DNA from: Elusimicrobiota bacterium
GTDB taxonomy: Bacteria; Elusimicrobiota; Elusimicrobia; UBA1565
Direction: 5' to 3'
Length of the DNA stretch: 44,933 nucleotides
NCBI GenBank assembly: GCA_043827405.1
Contig: JBDRPD010000049.1
Location: 1-44,933, forward strand
How positions within the stretch are numbered: position 1 is the first letter of the stretch; every line of letters starts with the position of its first letter. The position numbers were made by a program. Positions 6,001 to 18,000 of the stretch are shown here, piece by piece.

Positions 6001-9000
6001 TTGGGCGGCGGCGCCGTGAAGCCGCAGACGGTCATGCGCGACGCGAACGACCGGCCCATCCCCGACCGGTCGAAGTGGATCAAAGGCCAGCCGATGGCGA
6101 CGTCGATGGCCGCGGTCTTCGACGGCGGATCATTTGAGCCGCTCATCGACATCAACGGCGACGGCGAGCCGGATAATATGGACTTCCTCGGCACGGGGCT
6201 GCGCCAGCAGATCAGTCTGATCGGCACCAAGGTGCCCTCGATCGACATGGACGGCGACGGCCTGCTCGATATCGATATAAACGGCGACGGCCGGCCGGAT
6301 CTGGTGCAGGACGACGGCCAGGGCAATCTGGTGTACTTCATCATCAATAAGGAGGGCAAGCCGGAGCCGCTTTCGGATCAGGGGCTCGCGCTCGCCGCCT
6401 GGAGCGCCGACAACTCACAGCTGGAGATGTCCTGGCCGATGCCGTCCTCCACTCAGTCTTTGACCGGCTACGAGGTGGCCATCGGCGAGAGCTTCGACAA
6501 CCGCACCAATCTCAAGAACTGGTTCTACGTCGGGACCAAAACCACGGGCACCCTCTCGGCGCTCAACCTGCCGGTCGCCAACGTCACGCACCTGAAGTCG
6601 TCGATGACGGCGACCTCGCAGGAGATATTTGTCGAGGAGACCTTCTTCGAGCGCGGCCTCCTTATCGTCGGCTCCGAGCTCATCGGCGCCCGCCGGGTGG
6701 GCGATCACTACGTCGTCGATCCGACCATCGCGGGCTGTCCGTCGGGCAGCGGCCGCGGCTGCGGCGGCTCCCTGCCGCAGGTCCATCTGGAAAACGAAGT
6801 CGTTTCCAGCGACATGGTGCTGGTCTCGGTGCGCGGCTTCACCGGGCCGCGCGCGAGCCCCACGGGCTATGTGCCGTCGCCGACGGGGCGTCCGATCCTC
6901 GCCTACCGTATTGATGATACGCCGCCGTCGGAACCGCCGACCAGCCTGCGCTCCTCGGTGGCGAAGGGCGACGCCAAGACCACCTTTACCCTCTCCTGGA
7001 GCGAGGCGGTGGACAGCCAGTCCGGCATCAAGCTCTACCATATCCAGGAACGGTCGAACGTTGATCCGGTGTGGAAGACCATCGGCATGATTCCGGCCAA
7101 GCTCAGCGGCACCAAGGGCGAGCGGCTCAATACCAAGTACACCGTGGGCAGCGCCGCGCAGAACCCGACGGAAAAGCCGCGCGCCACCGGACAATTCCTG
7201 ACCTATCGCGTGCGCGCCTACAGCAGCGCCGGCACCCCGTCGGGCTGGTCGACAGAATCCGCGGCGGTGGCGACCTCGATCACCAGCGAGGTGATCGATA
7301 AGGTGTCGAACTATCCGAATCCGTTCGACTCGCGCAAGGGCGGGCCCGAGGGGCAGACCGTCATCGTCTACACTTTGGGCACGGCCTCGGATGTCGAGAT
7401 CGTGATCTACGACCTGCTGGGCTATGTGGTTAAGAGCTTCCACTTCACCCCCGGCGAAAACGGCGGCCGGCAGGGCGCCAACTACGTGATATGGGACGGC
7501 CATAACGGTATGGGGCGGCCGGTGGCCAAGGGCGGCTACATCGCCCGCATCAAGGTCGGCTCGAGCCTCGGCACCGCCACCATCATCCGCAAGATCGGCG
7601 TCATCCACTAAAAGCCTAATGGCCGGCGCTCGTCGGGATGTGACTTGGGTTACATTTTTATTCGTCGAGAAATTAACATTTCTGTGATGCGGTATTGAAT
7701 TGTGTTTATAATTGCACGATATATTTCCTATTGACAAGTCAAGCAATCCGGTTATACTTAGAATGTAGTGTGGGTCGCGCTCCTGGTACGGGGATGGGCG
7801 TAAGCAAGGGAGCGTTATCGAACGACAATAGCTAACCCGGTGTAAGCCGGGGGCGCAAAGCGAAGGGCCCGGGTTCCGGGTCGCCTGGCTACCGAAACGA
7901 ATGACCATTTTCGGACTCGGGGAGACGTCCCCGAAATCGAAAGGAATGCTCGCAAAAGCGCGGATGTGCGCTGTTGCGGGTGTTTTTGTTTATATAACGT
8001 CCTTCTCGCCCGCGCTGCCGACCCTCCAGGCAGCTTCCGAGGGCGGTGGACAGGCCGCAGCCTTCCTGCAGTACGGCGTCGGAGCCCGCGCCCTGGGAAT
8101 GGGCGGAGCCTTCTACGCGGTTTCCGACGACGCAACCGCCGCATACTGGAACCCCGCCGGACTCGCCTACCTCCAGCGCAAAGAAGTGACCTTCATGCAG
8201 ACGGCGCTCTTCGCCGACACCCAGTACGGATACTTTGGTTACGCCCATCCAACCGCGACCAAAGGCACCTTCTCGCTCGGCCGTGTCGCTCTGACGGCGA
8301 GCGGGTTCGAAAAAGTCGACGCCCTGTTCGATCCCGCGACCGGGGAGCCGACCAACGTCACCGCGGCCGGTTCCTTCCAGGACAGCAAGCAGGCCATCCT
8401 GCTCTCCTGGGGTAAAGAGGCGACCGAGACCCTGGCGTTCGGTCTGTCGCTCAAGAACATCAAGCGCCAGCTCTCCGATTCCAGCGACAGCTTCAATACC
8501 CTGGACGTCGGTTCCATGAAGAGAATGGGCCGCAACTACCGCCTGGCGGTCGGCGTGCAGAACGTCTTCAGCATGAAGACCGGCGATACCGATGACACTA
8601 TCCCGGTCATCCTTAAGGTCGGCAACAGCATGAAGATGTTCAAGGACCGGATGCAGCTGGGCTTCGACGTGCAGAAGTCGCAGAGCTCGCCGCTTAACTG
8701 GCGCTTCGGCGGCGAGTACTGGGCCTCCCGCTGGTTCGCGGTGCGCTTCGGGCTGCTGGCAACTCCGGAGATCCAGGAAACCGATTTCGGCTTCGGCATC
8801 AAGACCCGCCGCATCGTCTTCGACTACTCGATGGGCATTCACGAGCTCGGCACCAGCAGCCGTATTTCGGTGGGCCTGCTCTTCGGCCGCTCGCGCACCG
8901 ACCGCTCCGAGGAGCAGGTCAAGCTGATCATCGAGCAGGGTTTCGAGGCCTTCAAGGCCGGCGACTTCCAGCTGGCCACGCTGCGCCTCAACCAGGCGCT

Positions 9001-15000: not shown

Positions 15001-18000
15001 GTATGGCGCTTAAGCCGCCCAAGGGCTGCATTGATGAGTCGGATCCCCGGGTCGCGCAGTTCGGCCACCCGGCGCCGGCCTGGCTTTTCCCTTACGCCGA
15101 CCTCATGACCGAACTCGTCTGCTTTTTCGTCATCCTCTATGCCTTGTCGGCGGCTCTCGATCCGGCCGCGCAGAAAGGCAAGGAGGAGATCGACAAGGTG
15201 ATGGATGAGCAGGGGGTCGCGGGCGAGGTTACGCTGACCAAAGAGGGCCTGCGCGTTTCGATGACGGAGGAAGGCGGCTTTTCGTTTTTCGAAAGCGGCT
15301 TCGCCGAGCTGACTCCGAAGATGCGGGAGACCCTCGCCAAGATGGCGGTTCCGCTAAAGGGTATGGCGGAGCAAAACAAGATGATCCTCGTCGAAGGATA
15401 TACCGATAATATCCCGATCCATAACGATTATTTCTGGTCCAACTGGGAGCTGTCCACGGCGCGCGCCACGTCGGTAGTCGAGTATTTCATCAACGAGAGG
15501 GGCTTCCCGCCCGCCTGCATGGCCGCCATGGGCTTCGGCGAGCATCAGCCGAAGTGCAAGGAAAACAGCCACGAATGCCGCAGCCGCAACCGGCGGGTCG
15601 AGTTTTTAGTGCGCAGCCCCGGCCTGGGCACCAATATATGCTCCGGCAAGCCCACACCAAAGCCCGCGCCCAAGGCTGAGCGGGGCCCGCCCGCGCAGGA
15701 GAAGAAGGAGACATGAAACATTATTGGATACTGATCCTTCCCGTCGCGGCGCTGGCGCTGGCCGGGAGCGGCTGCGGCAGCATGCAGCTGGGCAAGGCCA
15801 GCAAGAAAAAGGTTGTGCTCAAGGACTTCGCGGAAGGCCGCGTCGAGCAGGTGGCTATTACCGACCGCCTGACGGGCGCCAAGGAGATGCTGTTCGTCTC
15901 GATGCCCAAGAAATCGCTTTTTCTCGAGGGCTATATCGTGGGCGCCGTGACCGACTACGACGACAAGCCGATCGAGGGGGTGGTGGTGCGGGCGGTGGCC
16001 GAGGGGGAAGCGAAGTTCGTGGCCAAGGGGCAGGCGTCCTTCCAGACGTCTTCCTTTGACGCCGGCGTCAGCGATACCAACGGCATCTACCGTATTCGCT
16101 TCAGCCTGCCCATCGTCAATAATATCGTGGATATCCAGGGCAAGCTGATGTATAACCCCGGCTGGGAGCAGGAACTTATCAACCTCGGTCAGGCCTATGA
16201 GCCGCAGAAGAAGGAGAGTCCGTTCCGGCTCTATTTCGATATGAAGCAGGGGATGATCGTCTTCGGCGAGGGCCAGCAGAAGGTCGTCGTCCGCTCCGCG
16301 ATCGGCGAAGCGCGCGACCGCGCCGTGCCCGGCACTAAGGCGGCGGCGCCCGCCGCGGGGGCAGGTCAGAAGCCCGCCGGCGAGGAAGAGAACCTGTTTC
16401 AGGGTTTTGGTTTCGGCGCGTCACCTTGAGCGAGCCGCCCCGCGTATATCTGGACCACAACGCCACGACACCCGTGCGGCCCGAGGTGCGCGAGGCGATG
16501 CTGCCCTACCTCGGCGGCTCCTTCGGCAATCCCAGCAGCGTCTACTCCTTGGGCCAGGCGGCGCGGCGCGCCGTTGAGGAGGCGCGCGAGCACGTGGCGG
16601 AGCTGATCGGCGCGATGCCGGGGGAGATCGTCTTCACCTCCTGCGGTTCGGAGTCCGATGTGCTGGCGGTCTGCGGCGCCGCGCGGGCCGCGCATCGCCG
16701 CGACGCCGGCGAGCGCCGCCACATCATCACGACGGAGGTCGAGCATGAGGCGGTACACGGCGCCTGCCGCCTGCTGCCGGCGCGCGATTTTACCGCGACG
16801 AAGCTGCCGGTGGACGACGAAGGACGCGTCGCGCCGGCGGACGTCGCCGCCGCCATCCGTCCCGCGACCGCGGTCGTTTCCGTCATGCTCGCCAATAACG
16901 AGACCGGGACGATCCAGCCTGTCGGCGCCATCGCGGAGGCCTGCCGCGGCCGCGATATCCTGGTGCATACCGATGCCGTGCAGGCCGTCGGCAAGATCCC
17001 GGTCAGCGTCACGGCGCTGGGAGTGGACCTGCTGTCGCTGTCCGGGCATAAGATCAATGCGCCGAAAGGGGTGGGCGCGCTCTATATTCGCGCCGGGATC
17101 AAGCTGGAGCCGTTGATCGCCGGATTTCAGGAGCGCCAGCGCCGGGGCGGTACCGAGAACGTCGCTTCGATCGTCGGGCTGGGAACGGCGGCGGCCCTGA
17201 TCCGCGGTGAGCTCGCCGCGCACGGTACGGAGCTGCTGGAGCTGCGCCGCCGGCTGGAGGCGGGCCTGGACCGCCTGCCCGGCGCTCGGCGGACCTGCCG
17301 GACCGGCGAACGCCTGCCGAATACCTGCCACTATTGCTTCGCCGAAGTCGACGGGCACCATCTGGTGGTGTCGCTGGACCTTGAGGGCTTCTGCGTGTCC
17401 GGCGGGCCCGCCTGCTCGGGCGGGATGACCGAACTGTCGCACGTGCTCAAGGCCATGCGGGTCCCGCCGGAGGCCGGACGGGGGGCGCTGCGCATCTCAC
17501 TGGGCTGGGGCAGCCAGCGCGAAGACATCGACCGCTTCCTCGAGGTCCTCCCCGGGACGCTCGACCGGCTCCGCCGCGCGGAATAAGTGCCGGCCGCCCG
17601 ACGTAAATAAGTAAAATAGGATGTTATGATACGGGTGGTAGCGGCGATGAGCGGCGGGGTCGATTCTTCGGTCGCGGCGGCGTTGACGGTCGCGGCGGGC
17701 TATGAGACGATCGGGGTGACGCTCAAGCTCCTTCCCCGCGGCGCGGGCGGCTTCGGCTGCTGCGGAGCGCCCGACGATGCGGCCGACGCGCGGCGTGTCT
17801 GCGAGCGTATCGGCATCCCGCACTACGTGCTTAATTTCGACCAGCTGTTCGAAAAAGCGGTGATCGATCCATTCGTGAGCTCCTATCTGAGCCGGCGTAC
17901 GCCGAACCCCTGCGTGGAGTGCAACCGCAGCGTCAAGTTCGGGGCGCTGCTGCGTCTCGCCGAAGCTTGGGGCGCCGCTTATGTGGCGACCGGCCACTAC

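Follow-up and report, generated by a model that had tools for sequence, protein, structure and literature searches.

Fused FliF(RBM3)-FliG rotor genes with flagellar-type stators beside type IX-like carriers point to an undescribed envelope motor in Elusimicrobiota

In the literature searched, FliG and stators of the flagellar type figure only as flagellum components, and the available portion of a 2025 survey of MotAB evolution makes no mention of Elusimicrobiota (PMC12505986). As described in the accessible parts of two reports on Salmonella, RBM3 by itself assembles into rings (PMC8786727), and the motor of a deletion fusion without FliF-C and FliG-N still turns (PMC6445934). For type IX secretion (the T9SS), export is stated to require motor and ring in the consulted section of the source (PMC12635249). 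Within the Elusimicrobiota, Uzun et al. reported that free-living members carry genes for type IV pili (T4P) and for chemotaxis, and they suggested a link, according to the part of the preprint available (10.1101/2022.07.08.499144). Judging from sequence, a locus in the window analysed here, the whole 44,933-nucleotide contig JBDRPD010000049.1 of an Elusimicrobiota bacterium, points to an undescribed envelope motor, in which a fused rotor and an ion-driven stator stand next to type IX-like carriers and very large proteins of the cell surface.

The initial annotation placed seven genes behind a c-di-GMP-I riboswitch, and the riboswitch and all seven genes were recovered at that place on the + strand (Table 1). 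The giant gene upstream begins at the contig edge and is probably cut; its TIGR04183 score (23.0 bits) equals the cut-off, its product is a probable cargo of the downstream PorV/PorQ-family barrel, and the gene is probably transcribed separately from the operon. The start of the barrel gene is uncertain (7901, 7946 or 7964), and its C-terminal TPR tail comprises ~200 aa. The coiled-coil protein, previously given as 667 aa, is indeed encoded there, but that length corresponds to a start at Met66 rather than at the first ATG. It has a Pro-rich N-terminus (36 Pro in residues 1-80), 42% E/K/R/Q and no hydrophobic segment, and is predicted to be cytoplasmic. The lipoprotein, with a generic prealbumin-like beta-sandwich fold, is encoded by a gene overlapping motB and the next, iscS-like gene by 4 bases each.

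Table 1. Predicted features of the rotor-stator locus and its upstream region.
Feature	Coordinates	Strand	Basis or remark
Giant protein gene	7..7611	+	At least 2534 aa; T9SS type A-like C-terminal domain at end
Sigma-70-type promoter-like site	7731..7758	+	Predicted; 11/12 consensus matches; 4 such sites in region vs 1.3 expected in shuffles
GEMM-I (c-di-GMP-I family) riboswitch aptamer	7820..7896	+	RF01051 covariance model, 54.3 bits, cut-off 35
PorV/PorQ-family outer-membrane barrel with TPR tail	7901..9535	+	NF033709, 104.1 bits, cut-off 90
FliF(RBM3)-FliG fusion	9646..11628	+	Domain profiles, structure model
Coiled-coil protein gene	11697..13895	+	732 aa; no Pfam family
FlbD-family small protein	13949..14176	+	Pfam FlbD, E 7.6e-21
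Flagellar-type MotA	14193..14999	+	Closest to MotP/MotA/PomA models
MotB	15003..15716	+	TM Asp33, MotB_plug match, OmpA-type peptidoglycan-binding domain
Predicted lipoprotein	15713..16429	+	Cys at about residue 21-22

The fusion protein consists of a signal peptide (to ~35), RBM3 with its beta-insertion (36-~207), one TM helix (227-245), an acidic/Gly/Pro linker (246-322), the FliG middle and C-terminal domains and a TPR tail, with FliG_M at 342-405, FliG_C at 431-538 and TPR at 579-646 in the profile search. An N-terminal segment described earlier as signal/TM is present, but it is short and moderately hydrophobic and ends in A-x-A, suggesting a cleavable signal peptide rather than an anchor. 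An independent model of the periplasmic domain (39-row alignment, pLDDT 72.4) retrieved FliF in every Foldseek row at E<=0.001 (16/16), and gave VIA Z values of 11.2, 10.8 and 10.1 for FliF against 7.7 for the first row outside the ring motifs; the beta-insertion is modelled with low confidence. The RBM3 sequence profile matched SpoIIIAG at E 0.007 and FliF at E 0.24-0.84 (5/6 rows), and all seven long hits tested, matching at residues ~137-413, were TIGR00206 FliF proteins above the cut-off. Like FliF, the fusion has a TM helix after an RBM3 that carries the beta-insertion. The assignment of this domain to FliF RBM3 is thus better supported than when it was first claimed, and the profiles recovering true FliF, together with the folds, support a natural FliF(RBM3)-FliG fusion outside any flagellum.

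The cytoplasmic part matched T. maritima FliG (1lkv) at E 1.5e-36, and the whole TIGR00207 (FliG) model at positions 112-333 of 338 with 114 bits against a cut-off of 226.7. FliG-N, the FliF-binding domain, was not found in the fusion, and the Pfam FliG_N match overlaps the middle domain. As previously noted, one acidic residue is left of the three classical torque-helix charges (R281, D288, D289): D288 alone is kept in the window fusion, as Glu, which occupies this position in 115/116 sequences. The R281 position is Gly in 107/116 sequences and Arg in none of 21 orthologues, compared with 4/4 flagellar FliG, and the second acidic residue is kept in 10/21 orthologues. The low-complexity linker of ~77 residues between the TM helix and FliG would make for poor rigid coupling.

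The absence of FlhA, FliF RBM1-2, FliM/N, rod and flagellin held up in searches of this 98% complete genome, in each of which four flagellate controls rang. FlhA gave no match over the cut-off and FliM/FliN none at E<=1, while the Flagellin_N search returned nothing but a chance hit containing a stop; neither rod (Flg_bb_rod) nor FliF RBM1-RBM2 (YscJ_FliF) was found in any of 11 genomes. FlgD_ig hits lay mostly at the tails of large secreted proteins. FlhA occurs in 6/301 Elusimicrobiota genomes.

The stator is of the flagellar type. MotA matched solved MotA over its full length (E 1e-46) and is far from TolQ (MotP/MotA E 1e-62, TolQ 0.02), with the expanded cytoplasmic domain and a basic residue of the R90 type, K/R in 13/13 sequences; MotB carries the plug and the OmpA-type domain, and its TM Asp is present in 13/14. 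The position of MotA E98 is Gln in 7/13. Loss of the second torque pair (FliG R281 and MotA E98 positions) counts against a motor reading.

FliG_C and this MotA type were found together in 105 of the 301 genomes, singly in 8 and not at all in 188, and FlhA matches were absent from 99 of the 105. Rotor and stator copy counts were equal in 80/105 genomes, compared with a mean of 29.6 and a maximum of 44 after shuffling, although such co-occurrence counts are not independent because the genomes are related. These data support shared retention, loss and duplication of rotor and stator, in line with the earlier proposal of a rotor paired with a flagellar-type stator outside the flagellum. That proposal, however, confined fliG and motAB to one conserved seven-gene operon, which does not stand: the genome holds four modules, encodes five FliG proteins with a membrane anchor and has four motA genes of the flagellar type, flbD being single-copy, and all seven genes occur together in 21/49 loci, in a lineage-limited order. 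The stator genes lie away from the fusion in 8/20 diverse loci.

The description of the operon as c-di-GMP-controlled has the RF01051 match behind it but is weakened by the aptamer's A where Vc2 has G20 (window 7830), as such variants can be bispecific or bind cGAMP; a G20A aptamer is bispecific (PMC6140456). Specificity for c-di-GMP is accordingly only putative. The same A is found in GEMM-Ib (c-GAMP) riboswitches with Hypr GGDEF signalling, but orthologous aptamers here more often carry G, and Hypr Ser/Thr was found in none of the 8 GGDEF domains of the genome, of which seven have Asp at the specificity position and the eighth is degenerate.

The module had been called stand-alone. It does stand outside a flagellum, but through its barrel and the genes around it the module is linked with a type IX-like system of cargo and carriers. 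The genome encodes 27 proteins with a type IX-like tail, all 27 profile hits being C-terminal, and 25 PorV-like barrels, a PorV-family barrel being paired with a cargo gene in 23/27 cases. The four modules adjoin tail proteins ranked 1, 2, 6 and 7 of the 27 by length (P 0.002, post hoc). A barrel lies immediately 5' of the fusion in 56/63 loci across classes; a tail-bearing gene directly precedes it in 35/56 and is missing there in 21/56, and four loci have a tail-only gene between riboswitch and barrel. A 1909-aa ORF resembles SprA distantly in three collinear segments (best E 7.9e-20).

Joint working of rotor and stator outside a flagellum is very probable; if this is so, their output somewhat probably acts on the cargo/carrier system. 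The whole reading, an ion-driven, flagellum-independent ring motor in the inner membrane that does mechanical work on giant surface adhesins or on the carriers of these, has about an even chance of being right. In such a machine, the fusion would self-assemble via RBM3 into a ring outside the membrane with the FliG domains beneath, and peptidoglycan-anchored MotA5B2 units would conduct protons (or Na+) and act on the FliG torque helix by way of the retained pair of the K/R90-E288 type. As FliM/N were not found, there would be no CheY switch. Force might be carried over the periplasm by the RBM3 collar, the barrel's TPR tail and possibly the lipoprotein, and might serve to move, pull or free giant proteins at the surface, each kept there by a PorV-type carrier of its own. 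It counts against this reading that neither a rod nor any other known transmitter across the periplasm was found. The coiled-coil protein may scaffold or position the motor, a cyclic dinucleotide may set operon expression, and the output may serve surface motility or adhesion. No motility has been observed so far. Only tentatively can one go on to a hybrid machine, in which the one-protein rotor ring and MotAB drive SprA/PorV-displayed giant adhesins across the cell surface; if true, this would be a way of gliding unlike those known from Bacteroidota and Myxococcota, and a living case of the flagellar torque core at work with no export apparatus, rod or switch.

Rather than forming a motor with external output, the ring could recruit stators as a surface or load sensor, engagement or ion flux reporting surface-protein contact to signalling circuits. 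A torque pair degenerate on both partners, a flexible linker, a histidine kinase in the reading frame of one paralogue (contig C42), a cyclic-dinucleotide riboswitch (clan match) in 17/20 orthologous loci and RBM3-MotA fusions without a FliG part (3/150 hits) would suit this. Against it, the stator is a complete one of the flagellar type that retains its TM Asp and its anchor to peptidoglycan and is kept in 1-5 copies per genome matched to the rotors, the FliG C-terminal domain is conserved, and the riboswitch puts the operon downstream rather than upstream of a signal; a sensor is unlikely. The motor could instead be the obligatory energiser of a SprA-like translocon in place of PorLM/GldLM and PorKN, given the requirement of T9SS export for motor and ring, the fact that several lineages have both the barrel and a tail-only gene within the operon, and the spread of SprA-like genes (259/301 genomes) and the PorV family (274/301). 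Neither GldM nor GldN was found over the cut-off in 26 genomes, where no control passed the GldM cut-off and the GldN search rang in none. Yet family f4 (SprA-like 86/88, PorV 88/88) has FliG_C in 1/88 and MotA in 1/88, and f14 (SprA-like 51/89, PorV 62/89) has FliG_C in 1/89 and MotA in 0/89, indicating that these families keep SprA and PorV without needing the motor as energiser; moreover, the SprA match is far below its cut-off (70 vs 200 bits) and has no Pfam or PDB sequence match, making this role quite improbable.

Barrels and cargo genes are so common that some adjacency is expected by chance, and the barrel linkage might be incidental to a motor energising another envelope process, such as T4P twitching, as suggested by Uzun et al., or envelope remodelling. 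This is very doubtful, as the barrel keeps its place directly 5' of the fusion, between promoter/riboswitch and fusion, across classes, and a 20-locus comparison made with window-gene queries alone showed no recognisable pilus genes next to the operon. Every motor part is a flagellar homologue, the torque and FliM-binding motifs are altered and some paralogues sit on long branches, as a decaying remnant of a lost flagellum might display, but conservation largely refutes that reading, which is highly improbable: intact fusions occur in both classes, two genomes (G064 and G240) hold FlhA alongside the fusion, the four flagellar FliG group by themselves in the tree (100/99), duplication is matched to stators, the riboswitch is conserved, and MotA orthologues are 51-78% identical across the phylum.

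With a natural minimal rotor-stator pair, kept in ~1/3 of the sampled genomes of the phylum, one can test directly whether a torque core assembles and functions when export gate, rod and switch are missing. Such a test bears on how flagella arose, and the pair makes a three-protein motor available to reconstitute. An envelope motor would also answer the question of Uzun et al. about the role of motAB, flbD and fliG in non-flagellated (including magnetotactic) Elusimicrobiota, and would extend type IX-like secretion parts, with a different motor, beyond Bacteroidota.

With the flagellar torque core the module shares RBM3 with beta-insertion, the single TM helix after it, FliG middle and C-terminal domains with a GG linker, a MotA of the flagellar type, a MotB that has the Asp, the plug and the OmpA domain, and an adjacent flbD. 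In contrast to that core, the rotor is one polypeptide without RBM1-2, FliF-C or FliG-N, a signal peptide replaces TM1, a TPR tail is added, EHPQ has become E(D/E)PW with R281 lost, FlhA, FliM/N, rod and flagellin were not found, and up to four or five paralogous modules occur per genome. The Salmonella deletion fusion likewise joins the MS-ring protein directly to the FliG middle and C-terminal domains, but it is a laboratory mutant whose flagellum is complete and retains RBM1-2 and FliM/N (PMC6445934), whereas the fusion here is a natural, phylum-wide gene without a flagellum. In SpoIIIAG/SpoIIIAH sporulation rings and T3SS PrgK, too, the ring-building-motif fold is put to use away from flagella (profile E 0.007; Z 8.0-9.2), but they lack a FliG or stator partner, the fold score for FliF is higher, and the host here is non-sporulating. 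Bacteroidota T9SS/gliding (SprA, PorV/SprF, GldLM, GldKN) is alike in C-terminal sorting-like tails, cargo-paired PorV barrels, a SprA with a putative distant homologue here and the principle that an ion motor drives a ring; it differs from the present system, in which the motor is of the MotAB/FliG type, the putative ring would lie at the inner membrane, the carriers have TPR tails, the motor is missing in families keeping SprA and PorV, and no GldM/GldN was found, though no control passed either cut-off. As read from sequence, the assembly would be new in kind, while each of its parts has known relatives.

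The genome, of 4.33 Mb and 98% complete, carries seven genes on the + strand of the window downstream of a promoter-like site and an aptamer, with intergenic gaps of 149, 68, 53, 16, 3 and -4 bases, and the named homologues belong to Elusimicrobia. The first gene encodes a PorV/PorQ-family barrel with a TPR tail that exceeds the NCBIfam cut-off, and the second a FliF(RBM3)-FliG fusion, in which a probable signal peptide is followed by a 190-residue periplasmic domain, one transmembrane (TM) helix, a low-complexity linker, the FliG middle and C-terminal domains and TPRs. A 732-aa coiled-coil protein devoid of hydrophobic segments comes third, followed by FlbD, MotA, MotB and a lipoprotein. 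MotA aligns along its whole length with solved flagellar stators and scores far higher with flagellar models than with TolQ, and MotB carries the TM Asp, the plug and an OmpA domain; the lipoprotein fold, a common beta-sandwich (best Z 7.3), is uninformative on its role. The lipoprotein gene shares 4 bases with the iscS-like gene behind it, which leaves the operon transcript without a defined 3' end, and the number of terminator-like sites in the region is at chance level. In close relatives, too, the operon is followed by the iscS-like, mnmA-like and 157-aa lipoprotein genes, which may belong to the same transcript. A long antisense ORF was rejected because its codon-position GC shows that it shadows the coiled-coil gene.

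Features of the window and of other contigs (C17 to C63) of the same genome; L-numbers are compared loci
Feature	Contig	Position	Strand	Remark
Promoter-like site	window	7731-7758	+	upstream of aptamer and seven genes
c-di-GMP-I aptamer	window	7820-7896	+	upstream of seven genes
FliF(RBM3)-FliG fusion gene	window	9646-11628	+	second of seven genes
Long antisense ORF	window	11547-13934		rejected
iscS-like, mnmA-like and 157-aa lipoprotein genes	window	16426-19163		after the operon
Short sorting-like gene	C42	18673-19080		
Kinase-bearing paralogue	C42	20691-23174		L063:3192-5675
Fifth, divergent fusion	C52	14007-18256		L066
Second GEMM-I aptamer	C63	14799-14915	-	
SprA-like ORF	C17	L076:5075-10804	-	

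The periplasmic domain of the fusion had been assigned in the initial annotation to RBM3, the third ring motif of FliF, and this was borne out by sequence profiles, a model of our own and structural searches. A profile built from 39 orthologous periplasmic domains gave six rows against the PDB at E<=10, namely SpoIIIAG (E 0.007), four FliF (0.24-0.84) and one unrelated protein, and 430 matches among 1.84 billion proteins. Composition is known for the best 150 of these 430, with a FliG part in 42, a length of at most 260 aa in 88, a MotA part in 3 and other arrangements in 17. A TIGR00206 scan of 32 of the best 150 yielded seven true FliF over the cut-off, all matched at the third ring motif (E 1e-11 to 1e-8); since sequence profiles recover true FliF, the assignment is no longer dependent on the model alone. 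With the predicted structure (pLDDT 72.4, insertion below 50), 16/16 Foldseek rows at E<=0.001 were FliF, and VIA gave Z scores of 11.2 (rmsd 6.2, 132 aligned), 10.8 (2.4, 100) and 10.1 for FliF, above PrgK (9.2), SpoIIIAH (8.6), SpoIIIAG (8.0) and the first unrelated row (7.7). The accessible parts of two Salmonella studies report that RBM3 alone assembles into rings (PMC8786727) and that a fusion without FliF-C and FliG-N still turns (PMC6445934).

Of ten distant proteins, nine are without a name and one is 'hypothetical'. Many matches (P0133, P0134, P0150, P0160, P0161, P0177 and others), of 165-245 aa, consist of a signal peptide and RBM3 alone and end just past the domain; they belong to no NCBIfam family and are possibly stand-alone ring proteins, some short matches being fragments. 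In P0138, P0139 and P0148, which lack FliG, RBM3 and a MotA-like membrane part are joined in either order.

Conservation was assessed in two partly overlapping sets, 20 loci chosen for diversity and 80 named loci, of which only those with enough flank were counted. Of the diverse loci, 18 have the barrel immediately upstream, 12 have flbD-motA-motB downstream and 8 have the complete set of seven; in eight loci, long coiled-coil genes follow the fusion instead and the next stretches hold no motAB. Five of those eight genomes were searched, and a close motAB was found elsewhere in all five, with flbD alongside in three. In the named loci, the barrel is upstream in 56/63, motAB downstream in 32/49 and the full set in 21/49; the proposal of one conserved seven-gene operon is weakened by this last count and by the four modules of the genome. 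With the orthologue alignment as query, 80 of the 107 loci from a scan of named genomes were retained, 79 of the 80 from Elusimicrobiota; a locus scan with a paralogue as query found none. Besides a short FliG_C fragment, the genome encodes five membrane-anchored FliG proteins, four of which adjoin a motA; flbD occurs only in the module of the window.

One paralogue on C42 bears a histidine kinase (HisKA, HATPase) in frame before RBM3-TM-FliG; its helix pattern fits a true fusion, and the middle helix could also be the signal peptide of an internal start. The fifth, divergent fusion lacks a motA and is accompanied by a TPR protein, a coiled-coil protein and a third protein, whose N-terminus appears GYF-like by eye, with no Pfam match. 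Many modules (L064, L065, L057, L090-L094, L096) have two tandem motB genes, and one copy is without the TM Asp in several (L057, L064), a pattern that suggests a MotB heterodimer.

A riboswitch clan match is found upstream of 17 of the 20 diverse loci. The position of Vc2 G20 is an A in the window aptamer, in 5/18 aligned aptamers and in 23/56 pattern matches. According to the accessible parts of the literature, this A is the mark of c-GAMP binders, the G20A mutant accepts either ligand (PMC6140456, PMC5888326), and Hypr GGDEF domains have Ser at the specificity position (PMC6456294); the part available of PMC8835794 adds no further information on position 20. None of the GGDEF domains in the genome has the Hypr Ser, which leaves a cGAMP circuit via Hypr GGDEF unsupported, and c-di-GMP would be the likelier signal. 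The earlier claim of c-di-GMP control is thus retained as to the aptamer and softened, by A20, to a probable ligand. Neither the aptamer nor a clear expression platform emerged when 7765-7970 was folded (z -1.09). The second GEMM-I aptamer of the genome, also with A20 and with a long P2 insertion, precedes small secreted-protein genes, and L050, L051, L054 and L055 have tandem riboswitches.

The giant gene upstream of the operon ends in a type A-like tail, the sorting domain of type IX secretion (T9SS) cargo. In total, 27 tail proteins, all with the domain C-terminal, and 25 PorV-like barrels are encoded in the genome, and a barrel lies within 500 bases downstream of 23/27 tail genes. By length, the tail proteins near the four motor modules take ranks 1, 2, 6 and 7 (P 0.002, post hoc); at the C68 module the tail gene is convergent and ~6 kb off. 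The gene immediately before the barrel bears a tail in 35/56 loci, and four loci have a tail-only gene interposed between the riboswitch and the barrel. In L050, L051, L054, L055 and on C42, a gene of 126-150 aa preceding the barrel consists of a signal peptide and a C-terminal sorting-like domain alone. A SprA-like ORF of 1909 aa ending in Phe has three collinear NCBIfam SprA matches, under cut-off; the Pfam SprA_N search gave only a chance match in SMC, and comparison with PDB sequences no match. SprA-like genes, with matches likewise under cut-off, occur in 259/301 phylum genomes, including families without the motor. The 1909-aa ORF is oriented divergently to genes that look lptF/lptG-like by eye. 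Searches for GldM and GldN found none, with controls also below the cut-offs.

The most likely reading, given about even chances, is that a MotAB-driven ring of the fusion does work on giant surface proteins under cyclic-dinucleotide control of the motor operon: wall-anchored stators would engage and presumably rotate the ring, and work would pass via a periplasmic collar and the TPR tail of the barrel to the surface, with movement or adhesion as the putative output. Torque residues were mapped by alignment to T. maritima FliG and to MotA of the B. subtilis type, with flagellar FliG of the same phylum as control, and were converted to E. coli numbering. In flagella, MotA R90 pairs with FliG D288/D289 and MotA E98 with FliG R281, as stated in the accessible parts of PMC7564593 and PMC12505986. 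The first pair is kept (MotA K/R 13/13; Glu in 115/116 fusions). Of the second, the rotor residue is lost (Gly 107, Asn 8, Ser 1; n=116) and the stator residue partly so (Gln 7, Glu 6; n=13). The EHPQ motif, which has a role in FliM binding, has become E(D/E)PW, in agreement with the absence of FliM. Such residues fit an interface that co-evolved but was altered, and this alteration is the main reason why a surface or load sensor, instead of a motor with external output, stays in play, unlikely as it is.

That a MotAB-driven motor is an obligatory energiser of type IX-like export is improbable. Family f4 has SprA-like genes in 86/88 genomes and PorV in 88/88, with FliG and MotA of the window type in 1/88 each; f14 has them in 51/89, 62/89, 1/89 and 0/89, respectively. 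These mostly small genomes, probably host-associated, keep SprA-like and PorV genes and nearly all lack the motor, which speaks against the motor being indispensable to export; it is an accessory in lineages rich in carriers. Another envelope role has a slim chance, and a remnant of a lost flagellum is highly improbable. Searches of the genome with FlhA, FliM/N, flagellin, rod and RBM1-2 models gave nothing over cut-off while four flagellate controls were positive each time, upholding the reported absence of these parts. Across 301 related phylum genomes, FlhA is found in 6, FliG_C in 106 and MotA (E<=1e-20) in 112; both of the latter occur in 105, one only in 8 and neither in 188, and 99 of the 105 lack FlhA. 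Against a remnant, their copy counts, which are match numbers rather than exact copies from non-independent genomes, are equal in 80/105 (shuffled mean 29.6, maximum 44), two genomes (G064 and G240) hold both FlhA and the fusion, and four flagellar FliG group apart (100/99) in a 30-row unrooted tree with paralogues of unsure placement on long branches. The rotor-stator module is maintained. The sole genome with FliG_C but no MotA match (G123) carries, on the small contig C153, a FliG of 348 aa that looks canonical, possibly a contamination.

Uzun et al. reported that Elusimicrobiota without flagella have many homologues of motAB, flbD and fliG, whose role they called unclear, and the accessible part of that work makes no mention of the fusion, operon, riboswitch or barrel link (10.1101/2022.07.08.499144). 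A term search in the accessible part of 10.1101/765248 found no T9SS or gliding terms, and Elusimicrobiota are not named in those of PMC13277936 or PMC12505986. Partly noisy searches of literature outside subscription journals found no description of a natural FliF-FliG fusion, the operon or Elusimicrobiota T9SS parts. The assembly of known parts is real, conserved and undescribed; it is not a flagellum and is not classifiable as a T9SS. In Bacteroidota, as described in the accessible part of PMC12635249, adhesins sit on carriers dedicated to them and are moved by a ring-bearing ion motor.
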